The notes under the pieces are model-generated. The model worked only from the letters and a program-made list of their open reading frames with translations. It had not been told where the DNA came from and made no database searches. The translations under genes and the position numbers were made by a program. From Candidatus Moraniibacteriota bacterium (GTDB lineage: Bacteria > Patescibacteriota > Minisyncoccia > Moranbacterales > UBA1568): a stretch of DNA of 64,000 nucleotides. Shown piece by piece: positions 2,846 through 58,564 of this stretch; positions within the stretch are counted from its first letter, which is position 1, and every line of letters starts with the position of its first letter. The DNA lies in the NCBI GenBank assembly GCA_052034935.1, contig JBPOIB010000001.1, positions 172,173-236,172 of the forward strand, in the 5' to 3' direction.

Positions 2846-3529
2846 ATGCTCAAAACTCTCCGGGCCTGGCGCGCCGCGCCGCGCTTCCAAGCATTCATCG
2901 GATCGAAGCCGATTCTACTCGCTCTTTCCTCGATTGCTTGGCCGAGGAAGATTATTCGCCGATTGTACGGCTGGGTCGTCGGCTGGGCGGAAACGAAGCG
3001 CGCCGAGCAAGCACTCGCTGGTATCGCGTTTGCGGAAAGCTCATTCTTCCCGATTCCGCCGGATCCGCTCCTTATCGCTATGGTGATGGCAAAACCAGCG
3101 AGTTTTCTTCGTCATGCGGCGATCTGCACGATCGCGAGCGCGCTCGGAGGTGCGCTCGGTTACTTGATCGGCCTCGCTCTCTTCAGTACGGTCGGCATGT
3201 GGATCGTGAATACCTACGGGTTGCAGGAAGAATTCGTGCATATCGGAACGCGGTATGAGGAGAATGCTTTCTTGACCGTCTTCACCGCAGCCTTTACGCC
3301 GATCCCGTACAAACTCATTACCGTCGCCGCTGGCGTCTTCCGGATCGATTTTGTCATGTTCATGTTCGCATCGCTCATCGGCCGGGGTATGCGTTTCTTT
3401 CTCGTGGCCTTTCTTATGCACCATCTCGGCAGTCGCTACAAGGACTCGATTGAGAAATATATCGATCTTCTTTCAATCGCTTTCGTCGTTCTCCTTGTTC
3501 TCGGATTCCTTGCGCTCAAATACGTGTAA
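2846..3529 (+). CDS. DedA/YqaA family membrane protein
   Basis: ATG 2846 in frame with ORF 2576..3529 (the upstream part overlaps the tRNA); motif FFPIPPDPLLIAMV and multiple TM helices. Confidence 0.75.
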   Translation: MLKTLRAWRAAPRFQAFIGSKPILLALSSIAWPRKIIRRLYGWVVGWAETKRAEQALAGIAFAESSFFPIPPDPLLIAMVMAKPASFLRHAAICTIASALGGALGYLIGLALFSTVGMWIVNTYGLQEEFVHIGTRYEENAFLTVFTAAFTPIPYKLITVAAGVFRIDFVMFMFASLIGRGMRFFLVAFLMHHLGSRYKDSIEKYIDLLSIAFVVLLVLGFLALKYV

Positions 3530-30044: not shown

Positions 30045-30073
30045 TTGACAAAATCATAAAACCGTTCTATTTT
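30045..30073 (+). promoter_or_regulatory. sigma-70-like promoter TTGACA-17-TATTTT
   Basis: Consensus -35, 17-nt spacer, near-consensus -10, about 30 nt before ATG 30105. Confidence 0.5.
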
Positions 30074-30104
30074 GCAGTCATCACTTTACCAACCGAGGTT
30101 TTGT

Positions 30105-30527
30105 ATGAATATGCCACAAGAGGGGTTCCTCCGTGGCATATTGCCTGGAGAACTTTCCCTACAGCCCATCGGGCCCGAGCGTCTCAGGGCGCGTATCGTG
30201 CTTTTTGAGTACGATCGGCGCGAAGTATCGCCGGAACCGATCAGCGAGCAGCTTCGCCAGTTTCGGCGAGAAAACCGACTCCCGCCCTTTGCTGGGTACA
30301 GCCAGCCGGTCGAGTTTCCCGATGCTCCGAAAGTCCAAGTGTTCGCTTGGACGGCCGAGAACATCCTTTTTCGCCCAGGGCACCAGCGGCCGCATCAGTT
30401 CATCTCCATGGACGACTACCGGCGTTGGGCTGCCTGCGAACCGCTCGGCAAGCCGAGAACGTTCTACACGAACTGCTACGACCGGGTCGGGAACCAGCTC
30501 CCTAGCACCTTCATCGTCGTCGCCTGA
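30105..30527 (+). CDS. hypothetical protein
   Basis: GAGG RBS 8 nt before ATG 30105; 141 aa; followed by a terminator. Confidence 0.45.
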   Translation: MNMPQEGFLRGILPGELSLQPIGPERLRARIVLFEYDRREVSPEPISEQLRQFRRENRLPPFAGYSQPVEFPDAPKVQVFAWTAENILFRPGHQRPHQFISMDDYRRWAACEPLGKPRTFYTNCYDRVGNQLPSTFIVVA

Positions 30528-30567
30528 CGGCCGCCGCTCATCCGAGTGTCGGCCGTTTCTTATTTCT
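30525..30567 (+). terminator. intrinsic terminator (conserved-loop type)
   Basis: ACGGCCG-ccgctcatccgagtgt-CGGCCGT followed by TTCTTATTTCTT; the loop is nearly identical to the one at 9971-9987. Confidence 0.6.
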
Positions 30568-31969
30568 TACGAACAACTTGTCCATTCGGACCGTCTTCGA
30601 CGATATAACCGAGTACCATAATCTCATCGCGCAGCGCATCGGAGCGGGTGAAGTCTTTATTCTCCCGAGCAGTTTTTCTTTCCTCGATAAGAATCTTTAC
30701 TGACTCTGGAAGCTCAATTGTCTCAAATCTTAATCCAAAAACAAACAATATATGCTCAAAAACCTTTTGGATACTTTCGGCATCAATTGGCTGGGTCTCA
30801 TCGAGAAGCCGATTCATTTTTTTAATAAAATCGAGAGTCACCGCGAGAGCACCGGGTGTATTCAAATCATCATGTAAAATATTTTCGAATCCTTCAAGTA
30901 GTTCTTTTCCACCCAGGGTTTTAAGCGTCCCCACTGAGTGTGGTTCTTCTAACCGCCGTATGGCCTGAAAAATAGCTTCTTTATTCTTTTTAGCCTGTTC
31001 TAGCGCCTCCCAGGTGAAATTCATCTGGCTCCTATAGTGCGCGCTGAGGAACAGCATGCGGAGGTCCATCGCCGAAAAGCCGCGTTCGAGAATGTCTTCG
31101 AGCCGGTAGAAATTACCTTTCGACTTTGACATTTTCTGCCCATCGACAAGGAGGTGGCGGCCATGGACCCAGTAGCGGGAAAATTTTTTCTCATTGCCGC
31201 ATTCGCTTTGTGCGATTTCCGCTTCGTGGTGAGGGAAGATATTGTCCTCGCCGCCGGTATGGATGTCGATGGTGGCGCCGAGTGTGGCCAAATTCATCGC
31301 ACTGCATTCGATATGCCAGCCGGGGTAGCCGACGCTCCAGGGCGAATCCCAATGCATCAGGTGTCCCTCTGGCGCTTTCAGCCAGAGCGCGAAGTCCCAG
31401 GGATTCTTCTTGTCCGGATGCTCTTCGAGACGAGCACCGACTTTGAGTTTGTCGAGCGTATTGCCGGAGAGTTTGCCATACTCCGTGAAGGTGGTGACAT
31501 CGAAAAAAACATTGCCGTTTACCGCGTAGGCGTGACCCTGCTTGATGAGACTCTCGATGAAAGTAATCATCTCGGCGATGTAATCAGTCGCCTTCGGCTG
31601 CTCATGCGGCGGCAGGATATTCAGCGCAGCCTCAGCCTGGCGGTAGTAGTCGGTATAGAAAGCGGCGATCTCTTCCGGAGCCTTGTGCTCCGCGGCGGCC
31701 TTTTTCGCGATCTTGTCTTCACCGCTGTCTCCCTGAGCGATGTCATCCGCGGTCAGATGACCGACGTTGGTGATGTTTTTCACGTGCTTGACCTCGAGTC
31801 CTGAAGCTTCAAGGACCCGTCGCAAGGTATCTGCCATCACATAGGAGCGCAGATTGCCGATATGGACGTAGTCGTAGACGGTCGGACCGCAGGTGTACAT
31901 CTTTACTGGGCCATCCTTCGGCGCTTCGAATGGCTGCTTTTCTTTGGCGAGGGTGTTGTAGAGGGAAAG
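30560..31969 (-). CDS. cysS: cysteine--tRNA ligase
   Basis: HIGN (HIGNLRSY) and KMSKS class-I motifs; start chosen at MLSLYNTL. Confidence 0.9.
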   Translation of the reverse strand, partial: LSLYNTLAKEKQPFEAPKDGPVKMYTCGPTVYDYVHIGNLRSYVMADTLRRVLEASGLEVKHVKNITNVGHLTADDIAQGDSGEDKIAKKAAAEHKAPEEIAAFYTDYYRQAEAALNILPPHEQPKATDYIAEMITFIESLIKQGHAYAVNGNVFFDVTTFTEYGKLSGNTLDKLKVGARLEEHPDKKNPWDFALWLKAPEGHLMHWDSPWSVGYPGWHIECSAMNLATLGATIDIHTGGEDNIFPHHEAEIAQSECGNEKKFSRYWVHGRHLLVDGQKMSKSKGNFYRLEDILERGFSAMDLRMLFLSAHYRSQMNFTWEALEQAKKNKEAIFQAIRRLEEPHSVGTLKTLGGKELLEGFENILHDDLNTPGALAVTLDFIKKMNRLLDETQPIDAESIQKVFEHILFVFGLRFETIELPESVKILIEERKTARENKDFTRSDALRDEIMVLGYIVEDGPNGQVVRKK

Positions 31970-32062: not shown

Positions 32063-32974
32063 CTAGATCCAACGCCTCATCCGAAAGACGACGATGGTGA
32101 GGGCAGAGAGGAAGACCATCATGGCGAAATGGATCCAAAAGCCGCCTGCTGCTCCCTCAAAGGGAAGGTGAGTTGTATTCATCGACATCGCGTTCGAGTA
32201 GACCGTCAGTGGGAGGATGACCGCCGAAAAAATCGTGAGGACTTTCATCGTCTGCTCGAGCTTATTCGAGAGAAGCGAGTTATTGGTCGCTTCGAGCGCC
32301 TCGATCGTCTCTTTGTTGCTCTCGAGCATGTTCCAGAGTCGGACATTGGTGCCAATCAGATCTTGGAAATAGGCAGTAAGGTCGGGCGGGATGAATGGAT
32401 GCTTGGTCGCGAGTAGGCTCTCGATGAGCGACCGCTGTGGTTTGAGCGTGCGGCGGAAATTGAGGATGTCTCGTTTCACGAGGGAAATCTCGAAGACCAT
32501 TTCTTTCTCGTGGCCAGCGAAGACTTCGGTCTCGATCCGATCGATTTTTTCCGAAATGTGGTAGAGCTTGGGGAAGCAAGAGTTGAGGAGAAGCTCGAGG
32601 AGGTGGTAGACGAGATGGGTCGGGGAGTCCTCGAGGTGAAGTCGCCGCTTTCCTTCACTCGCTTCCAGTTCGGCGAAGAATTTCCCAATCTGGTAGATGG
32701 GAAAGCGGTGCGCTGTGATGAGGTGGTCCTTGGTGAGGATAATGTCGAGTTCCCCGGCGTAGGTGGTGCGCTCCTTCACATCGAAGAGCGGGATGTGGAT
32801 GGAGAAAAACAAACACTGGTCATAGCGCAAGACCCGCGGCTGATACGTCGGTGTAATCAGCTCTTCGAGGACGAGGGGGTGGATGTCAAAATTCTCGTGG
32901 AGGTACAGGATGTCGTCCTTGGTCGGCGACTCGAAATCGATCCACGTGACATTCTTATGGGTGAGCGTGTGCAT
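32063..32974 (-). CDS. corA: CorA-family magnesium/cobalt transporter
   Basis: Cytoplasmic N-domain plus two C-terminal TM helices with a degenerate GMN-type motif (YSNAMSMN); start chosen at MHTLTHK. Confidence 0.65.
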
Positions 32975-33052
32975 GTTTCTGTTGGTGTTTTTTCCAGTAT
33001 AGCAGGCGTTTTCACCTTGACAAAGGCATTTGGTCGGGGTTATGCTCATCCC

Positions 33053-33316
33053 ATGCTCAAAACGGTTTTTTTGAAGCTGATTCGGCTCTATCAGGCGACT
33101 TTTTCCCTGAATCACGGCCTCCTGGGGCTCATCATCGCCGAACGGTACTGCCGTTTTCATCCGACCTGCTCAGAGTACGCCTACGAAGCGATTTCCCGCT
33201 TTGGTGTATTCCGAGGAGGGTGGATGGGGTGCAAACGCATCCTACGCTGCCAGCCATGGTCCGAAGGCGGGTATGACCCAGTCATGCCACCGAAGGAAAA
33301 GCAAACTGAACGTTAA
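33053..33316 (+). CDS. yidD: membrane protein insertion efficiency factor YidD
   Basis: [12 protein letters not shown]...[16 protein letters not shown] is the YidD signature; 87 aa. Confidence 0.85.
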
Positions 33317-33319
33317 CAA

Positions 33320-33625
33320 GTGAATCGGAGAACAAACTTGCAGATCGTACAAGTCGAACGTCTCGCCCACGTCCGTGGCCGCCTCATCGGCGACCGCATC
33401 GAGGGCCGCAGTGTGCTCGAACCGGAACTGATCCGGCAAAAGGGCAGTTCCACAACGGCAGTTCCTGCCGCGAATGATGCCGGCAAGACGGCAGTCCGTT
33501 GCCGCCAGATCATCCGTGGCGGCCGGCCGAAGACCGTTCCGCTCACCCGGGCGAAGACCAAGTTCCAGTCCCACGAGCGCAAGTGCCAGTGCTGCAATCA
33601 TCGCCTGGCCTGCGCGACCGCATGA
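33320..33625 (+). CDS. small Cys-motif protein (C-x27-C-x2-C-x5-C), hypothetical
   Basis: GTG start 4 nt after the yidD stop; Cys pattern C61...C89-x2-C92-x5-C98. Confidence 0.25.
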   Translation: MNRRTNLQIVQVERLAHVRGRLIGDRIEGRSVLEPELIRQKGSSTTAVPAANDAGKTAVRCRQIIRGGRPKTVPLTRAKTKFQSHERKCQCCNHRLACATA

Positions 33626-33663
33626 CGTGAAGTCCAACCACTCAACGTTTCAAGGAGAACTCT

Positions 33664-33867
33664 ATGCTGTTCCAGAGGTCTGCGTTGGCGCCGGATGACC
33701 CGAAGCGTCGTCATGAGCCGGTGGTGATCTGCCAGGGCTACACGACGGAGGGCAATCAGCCTCAGCGCGTGCCCCTCTCCACGGCCCATGTGCGGGCCAT
33801 GCGATGTCCGGAGCGCTGCGTCGGCTGCCTGAGCCAGGGGCAGTGCAACCCGCCGCTTCGCCACTGA
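33664..33867 (+). CDS. small Cys-motif protein (C-x28-C-x2-C-x5-C), hypothetical
   Basis: AAGGAG RBS 7 nt before the ATG; Cys pattern C23...C52-x2-C55-x5-C61. Confidence 0.35.
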   Translation: MLFQRSALAPDDPKRRHEPVVICQGYTTEGNQPQRVPLSTAHVRAMRCPERCVGCLSQGQCNPPLRH

Positions 33868-34389
33868 CGTTTCGCCACCCAGGCGCCGTAAGTCGTCTTT
33901 CAACCACGAGGGGATAGCCAACGCGCTGTCCCCTCGAATCATATCCAGGAGAAAGCCATGCTTGGATTGCGCATTGAAGCAGCCCTGGTGTTCGAAGTGA
34001 TTGCCCTTATCGAATATCGTTCAGATTTCCCGCCCAACCCCGTCCTCCACACGTCCAATCTACATACATCGCCGCAACTGCTGCTTGGGAATCCGTTCGA
34101 GGATTCACTCTTCGAATCAGCTGATGTGGCGGCTGATGTCCAGCGCTTTCGGCTCGGCCGCATCCGCTTGCCACTCGTTCCCGAGAGGCGCTACGGTCCG
34201 CCGTCCTATCGGCGCTGGCCTTCCGCATCAACCAATCGTCGCGAGCGAGGGAACCGTTGCCAGCGCTGAGCATCGCCCCTGTACGTCGCATTCCGTTTGC
34301 GCTAGGATAGGGCTGTTTCAGAAGTCCTGCTCATTCCCAAAACAAGATTTTCTCGGAGACATATCACCCCGCAACTACCGGAGTCATCC

Positions 34390-34698
34390 ATGAATGCCGA
34401 ACTTTCGGTGTCCACCCATCCCATCTTCCCAGGCACCCGCGTACCTTGTCCCTCAGCAGGGAATCACCTCCTGCTCAGTGCTGCCGCCCTGCGCGAGCGC
34501 TCGGCCGCCTGTGTTACCTGCGGCGTTCGGGGACCGTGCCGGACGCTGTATGCGCCCGAAGCTGCCGCTCCCGACTCGTGCTGGATCGCCATGGCAGTGA
34601 CGCGTGACCAGTCCAGGTGTGCTGACTGCTCCGTCCGCGAACCGTGCCATGACCTCGTCGCCGAGCTTGCGGCTATCGCCCGCCGCGCGGGGCATTGA
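34390..34698 (+). CDS. small protein with two tandem WhiB-like Cys motifs (CxxCxVRxPC), hypothetical
   Basis: GGAG RBS; C41VTC44GVRGPC50 and C77ADC80SVREPC86; TAGGAT motif upstream. Confidence 0.4.
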   Translation: MNAELSVSTHPIFPGTRVPCPSAGNHLLLSAAALRERSAACVTCGVRGPCRTLYAPEAAAPDSCWIAMAVTRDQSRCADCSVREPCHDLVAELAAIARRAGH

Positions 34699-34773
34699 AC
34701 CCCGGTGCGAAAGAAACTCGCGTCCGCCCAAAGGAACGCTTTCCTGAGGGCTTTTTTCATACCCAAATTAGAG

Positions 34774-34800
34774 TTAGCACTCACACTTGACGAGTGCTAA
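34774..34800 (+). promoter_or_regulatory. CIRCE operator (HrcA binding site)
   Basis: Perfect TTAGCACTC-N9-GAGTGCTAA inverted repeat. Confidence 0.9.
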
Positions 34801-34816
34801 AACTGGATTTATACTG
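34787..34816 (+). promoter_or_regulatory. sigma-70-like promoter TTGACG-18-TATACT overlapping CIRCE
   Basis: -35 within the CIRCE right arm, -10 TATACT 25 nt before the hrcA ATG. Confidence 0.6.
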
Positions 34817-34840
34817 GAGACACAGAACGGTGAAATCGTT

Positions 34841-35596
34841 ATGAACATGAATGAACGACAACGCGAAGTGCTCTCGGCTGTGGTCGAGCTGTACACGAAA
34901 ACGGCGCTCCCGGTCGGCTCCGAAGCCCTGCTCGAACGGCATCATTTTCCGGTGAGCTCGGCGACACTCAGGAACGACATGCTCGCCCTCGAGGAAATGG
35001 GCTATCTCTATCAGCCCCATACTTCCGCGGGGCGCATCCCAACTGATGCCGGCTACCGTTTCTATGTCGAGGAGATGATGGGCGACAAGCCGCTCTCGAA
35101 GAAAGACCAGCTTCACCTTCAAGAAGAGTTTTTGAAGCTCCAAGCGAAGCATAACCGCACCGTCCGCACCACCGCCCGTCTTCTCTCGGCCCTCTCGGGC
35201 AATCTGGGGGTTTCGGGAATGGTCGGCAAAGATGAAATCTATGATTTCGGGATGAAGTCCCTCATGGAGAGCCCGGAATTCCGCGAAATGGATGATCTCT
35301 GTCGGCTTGTTGAGACCCTCGATACGCTCGATGAGAAGATTGATGTCCTCGTCGCTGGACTGAAAGATGGTGAGACACGCATCTTCATCGGCGAAGAGAA
35401 TCCGGTCCGCGGTATCGAGAACTGTGCGATGGTGGTGTCACCCTACCGCGATGAGAATGGGGATCGCGGCATGCTCGCCATCATCGGTCCGAAGCGGATG
35501 GAATACGCCAAGAACAAGTCGCTCATCGAATCGATGCGCCGCCTCCTCGGATCGTCCCTCGTCATCGTGATCGTCACTCAGGCACCGTTATGGTAA
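34841..35596 (+). CDS. hrcA: heat-inducible transcription repressor HrcA
   Basis: N-terminal winged helix ERQREVLSAVVELYTKTALPVGSEAL; CIRCE immediately upstream; ATG 34841 lies within ORF 34787..35596. Confidence 0.9.
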   Translation: MNMNERQREVLSAVVELYTKTALPVGSEALLERHHFPVSSATLRNDMLALEEMGYLYQPHTSAGRIPTDAGYRFYVEEMMGDKPLSKKDQLHLQEEFLKLQAKHNRTVRTTARLLSALSGNLGVSGMVGKDEIYDFGMKSLMESPEFREMDDLCRLVETLDTLDEKIDVLVAGLKDGETRIFIGEENPVRGIENCAMVVSPYRDENGDRGMLAIIGPKRMEYAKNKSLIESMRRLLGSSLVIVIVTQAPLW

Positions 35597-35738: not shown

Positions 35739-36653
35739 ATGACCCAAGAAAAACAATCGAGCCTGGTCAAGTACGAGCAGTTCCAGCTTAGCCAGAAGGC
35801 GGTAATCTATTCGAAGACGACGAAGAAGTTCCTTCTCTTGAAGGATGCTGAGCCGGAGTCCGAATACGTCGCGAAGTATGGTCTCTGGGACTTGCCGGGC
35901 GGGCGGCTCGAGAAGGGCGAAGCGCTGCCATCCTCCTTCGAGCGTGAGCTTCGCGAGGAGATTGGTGATTTAAAATACGAGCTTCGCGATATCGTGTACG
36001 CCACGACAGTCTCAATTCCCTTGGACGATCCAGAGAGCCCGAACCGCGTTCGCCTCATCTCTCTCGCGACGACCGAAGACGATACCGTCACGCTTTCCGA
36101 CGAGCACACCGAAGCCGCCTGGAAGACGTTCGAAGAAATCGACGCGGATGCCGATTGCGGCGAGTGGCTGAAGCGAGCGGTCACGGCAGCACTGACGACG
36201 CTTCGGGCAGAGGAGGGTGCCAATGACACCCTTCGCATCCTCGCTGACTTCGAGAACTACAAGAAGCGAGTGAAGAACGATGAACGCGAGCTCTACGGTC
36301 ACCTGACGGCCCAAATCGTCAATGAGCTCATCCCAGTCCTCGACAATTTCCACGCCGCGACGGGTCATGTCCCGGCCGATGCGGCGGGCAGCCCCTGGGT
36401 CACCGGCATCACCTATATCGAGAAGCAGTTCGAGGATGTACTCGCCAATTACGGGGTAACGCCGCTCGACGTCAAACCCGGCGATGCCTTCGACCCGACT
36501 CGCCACGAAGCCCTCGATCACAAGGCCGCAGCAATGAAAGAAGGAGAGCTGGAGGGGGAGAAAAAACTCGTTATCGAGAAAGTCGTCCAGAAAGGCTATC
36601 TCATCAAAGACAAGCTCGTCCGCCCCGCCAAAGTGATCGTGACCGAAGCTTAA
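35739..36653 (+). CDS. grpE: NUDIX hydrolase-GrpE fusion protein (nucleotide exchange factor GrpE with N-terminal NUDIX domain)
   Basis: N-terminus has Nudix box GGRLEKGEALPSSFERELREEIGD; C-terminal 170 aa LRILADFENYKKRVKNDERE...KGYLIKDKLVRPAKVIV is canonical GrpE. Confidence 0.8.
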   Translation: MTQEKQSSLVKYEQFQLSQKAVIYSKTTKKFLLLKDAEPESEYVAKYGLWDLPGGRLEKGEALPSSFERELREEIGDLKYELRDIVYATTVSIPLDDPESPNRVRLISLATTEDDTVTLSDEHTEAAWKTFEEIDADADCGEWLKRAVTAALTTLRAEEGANDTLRILADFENYKKRVKNDERELYGHLTAQIVNELIPVLDNFHAATGHVPADAAGSPWVTGITYIEKQFEDVLANYGVTPLDVKPGDAFDPTRHEALDHKAAAMKEGELEGEKKLVIEKVVQKGYLIKDKLVRPAKVIVTEA

Positions 36654-57042: not shown

Positions 57043-57504
57043 ATGGAAAATGAACTCAAACAGCAGCTTACCCGCATCCGCCTGGCGACTATCGCCCTCC
57101 GGCATAACGTTCGCCATGCCTTCGATGAATTCCGAGAGCGTTTCGCCTCTTGGCGACCGACAGAGACTACACTGCCTCCTCTCTCTTCTTTAGAGCCGGA
57201 AGCCAAAAAGTTACTCCTGCCGATTCTTTCCTTCGACCGCCGCTTGGTTTTGCGCTGGGCTTTTACGACCCTCTTTTTCGGTCTGAGTGTCATTCTTGGT
57301 GTCATGCTCAAATCTTCGGCCGACGAGCGTTTCACGATTGGTCATGAGGACTACCGACTTACTCCGGCTGAACAGCTCTACGACTTGAACGAGCTCCGTG
57401 AGAGAGCTTTGGCCAATGGTGCGCCACTCACGATGGACCCGAAACCGACCTATCCGGTCTGTACTGATGATATTGATGTTTCCGTGGACGAAGCCGCTCT
57501 CTAA
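57043..57504 (+). CDS. hypothetical protein
   Basis: 153 aa, one internal TM. Confidence 0.4.
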   Translation: MENELKQQLTRIRLATIALRHNVRHAFDEFRERFASWRPTETTLPPLSSLEPEAKKLLLPILSFDRRLVLRWAFTTLFFGLSVILGVMLKSSADERFTIGHEDYRLTPAEQLYDLNELRERALANGAPLTMDPKPTYPVCTDDIDVSVDEAAL

Positions 57505-57523
57505 ATTGATGATACGAAGCCTT

Positions 57524-58564
57524 ATGGATTGGAAAACCCTGTTCGCGAATCTTCAGAAAGACACTCAGACCCTCTGGTCGGTGGTGATTATCCTCTGCGG
57601 TCTTTTCATCGGCAGCCTCTTTGTCGATCTCGGCCAGCTCATAACGGGCAGTGGTTTTTCGGGCCAGGCGATCAAATCGCATGATGTGCTCGTGACCGGC
57701 GGCAAGACATGGGTCGCCTATACCGAGCCAAAGGTGGCTTTGCAGATTGTTTCTGATGAACAATGCATTGAATGCGATCCGAGCGATGCGCTGCTTTGGT
57801 TGCGTCGCATTGTTCCGACCCTGGAGGCGGAGCGGATTGATATCGCGAGCGAAAAAGGGAAATCACTCGCTGAAGCTTTCGATCTCGTCACATTGCCGGC
57901 GTTCATCTTCGATCAGTCGGTCAAGGAGACCGAGTTCTATGTCCAGGCTGAGCCGCTCTTCCGGACGGATGAGGCGACCGGACGGTCCATTTTTGACATG
58001 AACAAGATCGGCCTCCCGGTCGGTCGCTATCTGGCCGCGCCGGAAACGGGTGATGCCGATATTGTCCTCGGCTCGAAGGATGCGGCCGTTACCCTCGTTG
58101 TCTTTTCTGATTTCCAGTGCGAATATTGTCGCGACTACCATGCAGCCTACAAGCAGGTTCTCGCTGAGTATCCGGACCGAGTTCGTCTCGTCTGGAAGCA
58201 TCTCCCGCTCTCAATCCATCCGGAGGCACCGCTCGCAGCGGAAGCCGCCCAGTGCGCTGCTGACCAAGGACAATTTCTTCCGTATGCGGATTTGCTCTTC
58301 AGCCGCCAGGCAGAGTGGGGGAAAGCCGGTGGCGAACGACGGCTGAAGGAATACGCCTGGCGAGTGAAGGGCCTGGATGCGCGTGTCTTTGCTGATTGCT
58401 TTGATGGACACAGACACGCAGAGAAGGTAGTTGCTGATACCGACCTCGCTGCCCGCTTCAACCTCGAATCGGCTCCGGCGACTTTCATCAACCGTGAATT
58501 CGTTTCTGGCGCTTTGCCGTACGCTGATTTGAAGACGCTCATTGAGGCGGCATTGGCCGAGTGA
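57524..58564 (+). CDS. DsbA-like thiol:disulfide oxidoreductase with N-terminal TM and extra N-terminal domain
   Basis: C-terminal thioredoxin fold with CEYC active site (VVFSDFQCEYCRDYH); N-terminal TM; a second CxxC (CIEC) in the N-terminal domain. Confidence 0.7.
   Translation: MDWKTLFANLQKDTQTLWSVVIILCGLFIGSLFVDLGQLITGSGFSGQAIKSHDVLVTGGKTWVAYTEPKVALQIVSDEQCIECDPSDALLWLRRIVPTLEAERIDIASEKGKSLAEAFDLVTLPAFIFDQSVKETEFYVQAEPLFRTDEATGRSIFDMNKIGLPVGRYLAAPETGDADIVLGSKDAAVTLVVFSDFQCEYCRDYHAAYKQVLAEYPDRVRLVWKHLPLSIHPEAPLAAEAAQCAADQGQFLPYADLLFSRQAEWGKAGGERRLKEYAWRVKGLDARVFADCFDGHRHAEKVVADTDLAARFNLESAPATFINREFVSGALPYADLKTLIEAALAE

Follow-up and report, generated by a model that had tools for sequence, protein, structure and literature searches.

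Three closely spaced cysteines (C-x2-C-x5-C), joined by one remote cysteine, are found in the N-terminal motif of FNR and in the loop of Endonuclease III (EndoIII) and MutY. In WhiB1, a WhiB-like (Wbl) protein, the cluster ligands are C9, C37, C40 and C46 (PMC6282962). Wbl proteins are exclusive to Actinobacteria, and besides the cysteines the only sequence universally conserved among them is G[V/I]WGG (PMC6282962). Here, we analyze a locus in a 64-kb stretch of DNA from a Candidatus Moraniibacteriota bacterium (the window; contig JBPOIB010000001.1), in which the spacer between yidD and hrcA encodes three small proteins, the products of open reading frames (ORFs) 1 to 3, with this same cysteine spacing. 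The original prediction, made from the letters of the DNA, had read them as a family of cysteine-cluster mini-proteins, possibly redox- or metal-sensing, and as a whole it is partly supported. Judged by their sequences, the proteins are a genuine, previously undescribed small-protein family that has WhiB-like cysteine spacing and no WhiB ancestry.

A four-cysteine protein family between yidD and hrcA

The three ORFs predicted to carry C-x(20-28)-C-x2-C-x5-C (33320..33625, 33664..33867 and 34390..34698) all exist, with the spacing described. The start of the first, placed at a GTG at 33320, has to be moved: TTG 33338 is the likelier start, according to gene prediction on an identical contig and to the start of the close homologue P0004. 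Shine-Dalgarno sequences, which had been called good for two of the ORFs, are present in front of all three: GGAG 9 nt before TTG 33338, AAGGAG 6 nt before ATG 33664 and GGAG 8 nt before ATG 34390. In the rows below, E-values refer to the local hidden Markov model (HMM) described further down, and Cys4 denotes the four-cysteine domain.

33338..33625, + strand: ORF1, 95 aa, subfamily A; HMM E=1.3e-12; Cys4 domain DNA 33464-33622, motif CQCCNHRLAC at 33584-33613
33664..33867, + strand: ORF2, 67 aa, subfamily D; HMM E=1.6e-8; Cys4 domain DNA 33682-33864, motif CVGCLSQGQC at 33817-33846
34390..34698, + strand: ORF3, 102 aa, two tandem Cys4 domains of subfamilies C and E; HMM E=2.8e-10 and 7.7e-6; domain DNA 34411-34566 and 34552-34674

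Numbered from TTG 33338, the ORF1 cysteines read C55-x27-C83-x2-C86-x5-C92; those of ORF2 read C23-x28-C52-x2-C55-x5-C61, with an additional C48. ORF3 contains the two tandem CxxCxVRxPC copies that had been noticed, CVTCGVRGPC (34510-34539; C20-x20-C41-x2-C44-x5-C50) and CADCSVREPC (34618-34647; C64-x12-C77-x2-C80-x5-C86), and with its two domains and a 31-nt DNA repeat it is an internal duplication. The claim that the motif is conserved in the protein and is not a DNA repeat thus splits: the motif is kept where the relatives' DNA is unalignable, and the two ORF3 motifs do share the 31-nt repeat, at 74% identity. A six-frame translation of the whole window contains five copies of CxxCx5C uninterrupted by a stop, and four of these lie on the + strand of this spacer (at 33584, 33817, 34510 and 34618); 2000 shuffles of the 1.4-kb region gave a mean of 0.05 occurrences and a maximum of 1. 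The fifth, CRYCPRLEGC at 58054, takes in the CxxC site encoded by a gene for a DsbA-like thioredoxin (57398-58564, + strand). That protein is unrelated to the Cys4 family; it matches Pfam Thioredoxin_4 at residues 220-384, and its N-terminal part of ~220 aa has no family assignment.

With the window's HrcA protein as the query, we collected 68 loci from relatives, all of them metagenome-assembled or single-cell genomes. Most are labeled Moraniibacteriota/Moranbacteria, Patescibacteria or relatives, and many others 'uncultured Bdellovibrionales' or 'bacterium'. An HMM built from the motif-bearing ORFs upstream of hrcA in these loci, and iterated over the 14,236 six-frame ORFs of the window and the 68 loci, groups ORF1-3 with ORFs of the relatives, as expected for the small paralogous family that had been proposed. 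It gave 58 domain matches at E<0.01, distributed over the window and 22 loci, every one on the + strand and between yidD and hrcA; elsewhere in the window it found none. A looser regular expression that admits other triad spacings matched 48 times in the spacer (over the window and 22 loci, not all of them those of the HMM) versus twice elsewhere in 1.09 million six-frame residues. The family core is h-x-C-x(7-14)-[IV][PS][LV]-xx-A-x(8-12)-C-x2-C-x5-C, where h is hydrophobic and x5 is sometimes x6 or x9, and in most members the stop follows within 2-15 residues. Three cysteines are invariant, the remote cysteine and one alanine are at least 90% conserved, and mean column identity is 14-27%. 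More distant Moranbacteria carry variant triads in the same place (CxxCxxC, Cx3Cx3C and Cx5Cx5C; CxxCx6C and CxxCx9C also occur in the family) and keep the layout of a remote cysteine and a C-terminal triad. Together, these comparisons show ORF1-3 to be, as far as sequence can tell, one previously undescribed paralogous family whose sole common feature is a C-terminal Cys4 domain of ~45 residues.

Searches of 5.8 billion proteins returned 20 and 15 family members, and an exhaustive profile search of 1.84 billion representative proteins returned 25 matches, all from the same family and none with a Pfam domain or an informative name. Pfam, NCBIfam, PHROGs, PADLOC and the sequences of the Protein Data Bank (PDB) hold no family for the array proteins, that is, the products of the gene array between yidD and hrcA; the PDB sequence profile gave only a chance fragment of a nucleoporin-like zinc finger (E=3.7). 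Independent contigs place P0012 (24 contigs) and P0038 (from JGI) in the same yidD-hrcA context. No related loci were found in JGI metagenome contigs with ORF3 as the query, and no relatives of the family among 50,697 phage genomes or in IMG/VR; the lone IMG/VR match, obtained with ORF1, is spurious, lying in an alternative frame inside a 670-aa phage ORF without the cysteine motif. In the literature, we found no paper in which Patescibacteria or Moranbacteria are connected with small proteins that are Wbl-like or rich in cysteine. In everything gathered, these searches show a family confined to a clade of Candidatus Moranbacteria, in the candidate phyla radiation (CPR), always at the yidD-hrcA locus, in 1-5 fast-diverging copies.

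Clustering separates at least 12 subfamilies. The composition of the array differs by genome, being A, D, (orfX), C+E in the window, where orfX is a fourth gene described below, and A B, A C,. B F or J G I. in others, which argues for birth-and-death evolution. The spacer measures 72-184 bp in distant relatives (L051, L055, L057, L059, L060 and L065-L068) and 0.4-2.3 kb in family-bearing genomes. The HrcA of such genomes is as little as ~61% identical to that of the window, and they include the low-GC lineages L042 and L047. ORF1 has orthologues in eight loci (L005, L007, L010, L014, L073, L074, L077 and L079) and among database proteins (P0003, P0004, P0025, P0026, P0030, P0033 and P0035); its basic N-terminal part carries GDxIEGR and EPxLIRQK motifs that are conserved across subfamily A. 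ORF2 is related to, and shorter than, the proteins of the FGRRRR...LLTPAV...RFECARNPQGGTVTV group (FGRRRR...RFECARNPQGG). In L079 (~2905-3105, + strand), a different third gene, MFTTPAAMKEAVTTLPLITVWCSQQCSHTILRSASWSLRRDDCRKVKDCPHYTNCVRVATALHRPIN, with a remote cysteine and a C-x5-C-x5-C triad, takes the place of orfX and ORF3, which shows a cassette-like replacement within the array. In L007 (4611-5369), yidD and the subfamily-A gene form a single uninterrupted ORF of 252 aa; in the window the two are likewise in frame, with only the yidD TAA stop (33314-33316) between them. Because other relatives have the two genes in different frames, the joined ORF of L007 is probably incidental and may stem from a lost stop codon or a faulty assembly, not from a fusion of any significance.

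Substitutions in ORF1-3 follow the reading frames. Against L077, differences at first, second and third codon positions number 2, 4 and 6 in ORF1, 1, 1 and 3 in ORF2, and 2, 4 and 9 in ORF3, without indels. The corresponding ratios of nonsynonymous to synonymous divergence (dN/dS) are 0.33, 0.47 and 0.23 (0.29 combined), in the purifying range, versus 0.04 for hrcA and 0.02 for corA. Against L079, ORF2 differs at 6, 4 and 20 positions, and the sole ORF1 indel is an in-frame insertion of 21 nt. ORF3 is 71% identical in amino acids to P0002 of the syntenic contig L001 (corA-yidD-...-hrcA), with 18, 17 and 56 differences by codon position. In codon usage, each annotated frame scores best or is tied with its own antisense frame. 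At the DNA level, yidD, ORF3 and hrcA align well between the window and L001, and 33320-34290 is essentially unalignable; the unalignable stretch of L001 still holds small + strand ORFs with C-x25-C-x2-C-x5-C, C-x28-C-x2-C-x5-C and C-x24-C-x2-C-x9-C. The search of related genomes that had been suggested as a check therefore finds reading frames and cysteine pattern kept in homologous yidD-hrcA spacers, and the substitution patterns show purifying selection on ORF1-3 that is, by these estimates, relaxed relative to hrcA and corA. The view that the 1.4 kb contains no further coding sequence did not hold up: orfX (33958-34269) behaves as a gene, with 5, 2 and 12 differences and a dN/dS of 0.19 against L077. 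It has a 96-aa homologue in L011 (5316-5606), with YGPPxYRRWP and PF(A/E)(E/D)(T/S)LF in common. orfX is thus probably a real gene, and by these coding signatures the 1.5-kb spacer is shown to hold four real + strand genes. The apparent conservation of the antisense ORFs 33242-33637 and 33598-33942 follows from that of the + strand genes. We also considered the low synonymous divergence of the array from L077 as a sign of extra constraint and rejected it, as divergence over 8 kb is a mosaic (0-11% per 200-nt window, with one patch of ~45%).

These data bear on the reading least favorable to a protein family, namely that the ORFs are not genes and the GC-rich spacer is structured RNA or non-coding DNA with chance cysteine codons. 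GC-rich DNA does yield long ORFs on both strands, there is a strong hairpin at 33907-33936, and an Rfam model, ncrMT1302, matches at 33426-33535 with 25.5 bits, below its gathering score of 45. A scan of 32500-35500 brought no Rfam family over threshold, and we take the ncrMT1302 match, which lies inside ORF1, as chance. Because substitutions are coding-like and no Rfam model passes threshold, we reject a non-coding RNA; the third-position bias, the absent or in-frame indels, the cysteine pattern that outlasts DNA similarity and the HMM matches on one strand only (in 22 loci and the window) leave this reading next to no probability. The GC content itself is high, as had been observed (0.61-0.68, versus ~0.50-0.56 in the flanks). 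Among the relatives' loci the excess of array over flanks ranges from -5 to +10 points, so it is not general, and we rejected high GC as a mark of foreign DNA.

A true, very divergent Wbl protein, acquired from Actinobacteria or their phages, would account for the identical cysteine spacing, for the several paralogues per genome and for the resemblance of CxxCxVRxxC in ORF3 to the Wbl CxxCPVRxxC. The second ORF3 motif also gives the sole trace of Pfam Whib (10.8 bits, E=0.78; cutoff 23.6) and a faint match to a PHROG labeled WhiB-like (E=0.88). By contrast, none of the 43 domain sequences matches Pfam Whib at E<=1 in the family-wide scan, the profile search of 1.84 billion representatives brought up no Wbl protein, and tblastn of the 50,697 phage genomes gave no WhiB. 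When aligned by hhalign with PDB-verified WhiB1, Streptomyces venezuelae WhiB and WhiB3, the whole family reaches a probability of 1.6% and the ORF3 group 3.3%, which argues that the family is not WhiB. The position that aligns with G[V/I]WGG reads DSCWIAM in ORF3; the C-terminal extension with its positively charged helix or AT-hook is absent, the basic residues being N-terminal; and none of the family-bearing relatives is an actinobacterium (their labels are Moraniibacteriota/Moranbacteria, Patescibacteria, Minisyncoccota and 'uncultured Bdellovibrionales'). That these are not canonical WhiB proteins, as had been said for want of the GVWGG turn and the basic tail, is therefore borne out, and descent from Wbl is largely refuted and in our estimate highly improbable.

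The array, its borders and its probable transcription units

The genes run cysS(-), corA(-), yidD(+), array, hrcA(+), a NUDIX-GrpE fusion, hsp20 and dnaK, and the order corA(-)-yidD(+)-hrcA(+) is retained in most of the 68 Moranbacteria loci. The array does adjoin the hrcA operon, as the phrase 'next to the heat-shock regulon' had implied. The remaining features of the spacer and its borders, which include the controlling inverted repeat of chaperone expression (CIRCE), are the following.

33017..33046, + strand: promoter-like TTGACA-18-TATGCT upstream of yidD; both hexamers also in L001-L003
33053..33316, + strand: yidD, membrane protein insertion efficiency factor (Pfam YidD, E=7.4e-28); left, conserved border of the array
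33907..33936, + strand: GC-rich hairpin between ORF2 and orfX, 12-bp stem, no U tract; -23.9 kcal/mol, z=-7.5; single copy in the window
33958..34269, + strand: orfX, 103 aa, basic, hydrophobic N-terminus, no cysteine motif; Shine-Dalgarno AGGAG 6 nt upstream
34270..34389, + strand: conserved non-coding stretch upstream of ORF3; 1.7% divergence from L077, below the neighboring genes
34726..34757, + strand: intrinsic terminator, stem GCCC..GGAAC/UUUCC..GGGC, then U6; -13.8 kcal/mol, z=-3.1
34774..34800, + strand: CIRCE operator of hrcA, perfect TTAGCACTC-N9-GAGTGCTAA; right border of the array; sole match in the 64-kb window, even with 3 mismatches

Because the gaps between yidD and ORF1 (21 nt) and between ORF1 and ORF2 (38 nt) are short, the two ORFs are probably co-transcribed with yidD, and the promoter-like site at 33017..33046 likely drives all three. 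This conserved site stops 7 nt short of the yidD ATG, so the transcript may be leaderless or nearly so. ORF3 appears to form a unit of its own, with a conserved upstream region and a terminator that would part it from hrcA. The upstream region, 34270-34389, is probably the promoter and 5' untranslated region of ORF3: it contains a TAGGAT box and the block GCTCATTCCCAAAAC and is ~78% identical to L001 over 94 nt, the adjacent sequence being unalignable. It showed no convincing RNA structure, with one covarying pair among three sequences. The terminator tail GGGCTTTTTTC is conserved in L001-L003 and in L079, in all of which the inverted repeat of CIRCE is identical as well. A promoter-like TTGACG-17-TATACT (34787-34815) overlaps CIRCE, its -35 hexamer lying inside the CIRCE loop, and hrcA (Pfam HrcA) starts with ATG at 34841. 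As the window's one CIRCE marks the right border at hrcA and comes after the ORF3 terminator, the unit that it controls does not include the array, and we rejected CIRCE control of the array genes.

The hairpin at 33907-33936 is kept in L077, L079 and L001; L079 has U-A in place of a U.G pair and another loop, and in L001 the hairpin follows a different gene. It may be a 3' stabilizer of the mRNA, a processing site or a weak terminator. Just beyond it, the +1 frame relative to orfX (33959-34000, + strand) reads ...PCLDCALKQPWCSK before a stop, with CxxCx6C two residues ahead of the stop, as in subfamily B (CFSCGxxGxxC). This frame lacks a start codon and an upstream remote cysteine, and could be what is left of a family member that was lost, with the start of orfX now lying over it. 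Around their Shine-Dalgarno sequences and starts, ORF2 and orfX are 79% identical over 19 nt. There is no tRNA or tmRNA in the array region. Outside it, the grpE product (35739-36653, + strand) carries a NUDIX hydrolase domain at its N-terminus (Pfam NUDIX 21-137, GrpE 156-302), a fusion also seen in L073 and L074; GrpE of L076 is plain and 180 aa long. A patch at ~30050-31000, covering the 3' part of cysS and sequence downstream, is ~40-49% divergent from L077, with flanks at 0-11%, and partly overlaps a dip in GC to 0.40-0.47 at ~30550-31150. Such a patch, in a genome that is otherwise a close relative, looks like a tract that was recombined or replaced.

A probable metal site and the possible role of the proteins

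The family proteins are 67-130 aa long and hydrophilic (maximal 15-residue hydropathy <1.5), and they lack signal peptides and membrane segments. The isoelectric point of most is 9-11.4; ORF3 is close to neutral, and there are a few acidic subfamilies. Two AlphaFold2 models, both of low confidence, agree on a beta-hairpin whose first strand ends with the remote cysteine, a helix that covers xxAxxx[FY], and a cysteine-rich tail. We consider it likely that the four cysteines ligate a metal that folds the mini-domain. As to which metal, the ligand layout leads us to a tentative judgment that slightly favors a cubane Fe-S cluster over zinc. The layout of three clustered cysteines and one remote one follows the ligand logic of Wbl, FNR and EndoIII, its spacing equals theirs, and no second CxxC knuckle, the usual mark of a zinc ribbon, is conserved. 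The variable triad spacing and a domain of only 45 residues would suit a structural zinc site equally well.

A more far-reaching reading is that the Moranbacteria clade independently evolved a Wbl-like solution: small basic proteins with a redox- or nitric oxide (NO)-labile Fe-S cluster on a 1+3 cysteine motif, born in a yidD-hrcA spacer of ~100 bp, since diversified into 12 or more subfamilies through tandem duplication, and acting as stress-responsive regulators or adaptors beside the chaperone operon. In its entirety this is a possibility we rate as fairly unlikely. How Fe-S proteins of this kind would act is speculative. The proteins would be cytoplasmic and would bind nucleic acid or a partner protein through their basic N-terminal part; O2, NO or oxidants would damage the cluster and thereby abolish activity; and the proteins would then be functional analogues, not homologues, of the WhiB-like regulators. 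That the proteins serve as regulators or adaptors, or are linked in any way to heat shock or YidD, is speculation on our part. Several observations speak against the favored Fe-S reading. Neither structural model (predicted local distance difference test scores, pLDDT, 54 and 59) is reliable for metal binding or good enough for assigning a fold, and Foldseek searches with them gave no match. The window scan found no CIRCE upstream of the array. The dN/dS of the array exceeds that of hrcA and corA about tenfold, so selection is relaxed. The DNA is unalignable between genomes whose HrcA proteins are 88-98% identical, and a turnover of paralogues this fast, across the many subfamilies, is unusual for core regulators. 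Finally, the linkage to hrcA and yidD may merely reflect birth by tandem duplication in the spacer rather than a common function.

The same family could instead use its cysteines to bind structural Zn(II), making the proteins small, basic, zinc-finger-like binders of DNA, RNA or the ribosome without redox sensing. We regard this as a serious possibility. Their small size, high isoelectric point and disordered basic N-terminus fit it, as do the finger-like hairpin, helix and cysteine-rich tail of the low-confidence models and a triad spacing that tolerates change; single members give weak, chance-level matches to Zn_ribbon_RPB9 (0.0067), HVO_0649 (0.0087) and zf-HC5HC2H (0.009). Against it, no zinc-finger family reaches threshold, the ligands are arranged 1+3 rather than 2+2 with no second CxxC or CPxCG knuckle conserved, and the exact C-x2-C-x5-C of the closest clade is a classic Fe-S spacing. 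A more modest interpretation, to which we give a small share of probability, makes the proteins young, lineage-specific orphans, born and duplicated in the spacer and weakly selected, in which the Cys4 site only stabilizes a minimal fold and serves no important or specific role. The short spacer of distant relatives beside the 0.4-2.3 kb of family-bearing genomes, the elevated dN/dS, the frequent gain and loss of subfamilies and the very few homologues anywhere are what such an origin predicts. The invariance of the cysteines, selection that is still purifying and the persistence of the family to ~61% HrcA identity, including L042 and L047, speak against it. Tandem arrays, fast turnover and many subfamilies would also be seen if an arms race drove the divergence of exported cysteine-rich peptides (leaderless bacteriocins, effectors or precursors of ribosomally synthesized and post-translationally modified peptides) with disulfides or modified cysteines; the proteins are indeed cationic and small, their cysteines cluster C-terminally, and a DsbA-like gene lies elsewhere in the window. 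We think this very unlikely, as signal peptide and hydrophobic segment are absent, the neighbors in the contexts examined are always cysS, corA, yidD, hrcA, grpE, hsp20 and dnaK, with no maturase, radical-SAM, transporter or immunity gene, and the conserved 45-residue C-terminal domain looks folded (hydrophobic-x-C, [IV]P[LV], A) rather than like a leader and core.

The importance of the family hinges on its metal content. Should it bind an Fe-S cluster, WhiB-type mini-sensors would have arisen independently a second time, outside Actinobacteria and in ultra-small CPR genomes with few known regulators. If its members are merely zinc-stabilized orphans, the analysis still annotates ~40 'hypothetical' small proteins, a biologically modest gain. 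Either way, the locus records the birth and expansion of a protein family in a short intergenic spacer, with the ancestral (72-184 bp) and derived (1-5 genes) states both sampled.

Comparison with known metal-binding proteins

Cys4 zinc-ribbon and zinc-finger mini-proteins (archaeal CPxCG proteins, the HVO_0649 type and C4 ribosomal proteins) resemble the family in size, basic charge, four cysteines and the absence of an enzymatic domain. They have two CxxC knuckles (2+2), whereas the family is 1+3 with one conserved CxxC, its remaining two ligands being lone cysteines, and no zinc model exceeds threshold. In Firmicutes, the cysteine-rich zinc-finger modulator McsA is the product of a single conserved gene that neighbors ctsR, a heat-shock repressor gene, within the repressor operon. 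Its likeness to the family, a small cysteine-rich protein encoded beside a heat-shock repressor gene, is conceptual; the two share no sequence relation, and here a variable array lies upstream of hrcA with a terminator between. The SPASM/twitch auxiliary Fe-S domain combines CX2CX5CX3C with a radical-SAM core in a seven-cysteine motif. By contrast, the family has no radical-SAM domain, its proteins match none of Pfam SPASM, Fer4 and Radical_SAM at E<=1, and its fourth ligand lies upstream rather than downstream of the triad.

FNR and EndoIII share with the family the three close cysteines and the remote fourth ligand. Both are large proteins, a sensor and an enzyme, in which the motif takes up one segment, whereas here it makes up nearly the whole folded part of a mini-protein; no sequence similarity was found. 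Wbl proteins (PF02467; for example Mycobacterium tuberculosis WhiB1, PDB 5oay), which are transcription factors of Actinobacteria and actinophages with an O2/NO-sensitive [4Fe-4S] cluster and affinity for sigma-factor region 4, resemble the family in size (81-139 aa, versus 67-130 aa), in the four conserved cysteines with the same C-x(n)-C-x2-C-x5-C spacing, in the number of paralogues per genome, in basic regions that could contact nucleic acid and, for ORF3, in CxxCxVRxxC. They differ in that homology is undetectable (by hhalign and by HMM matches), in that the family proteins end 2-15 residues past the last cysteine and carry their basic part N-terminally, and in the first structural element, predicted by the low-confidence model as a beta-hairpin rather than a helix. 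Finally, Wbl genes are dispersed, whereas those of the Moranbacteria family are clustered at one locus of a CPR host.

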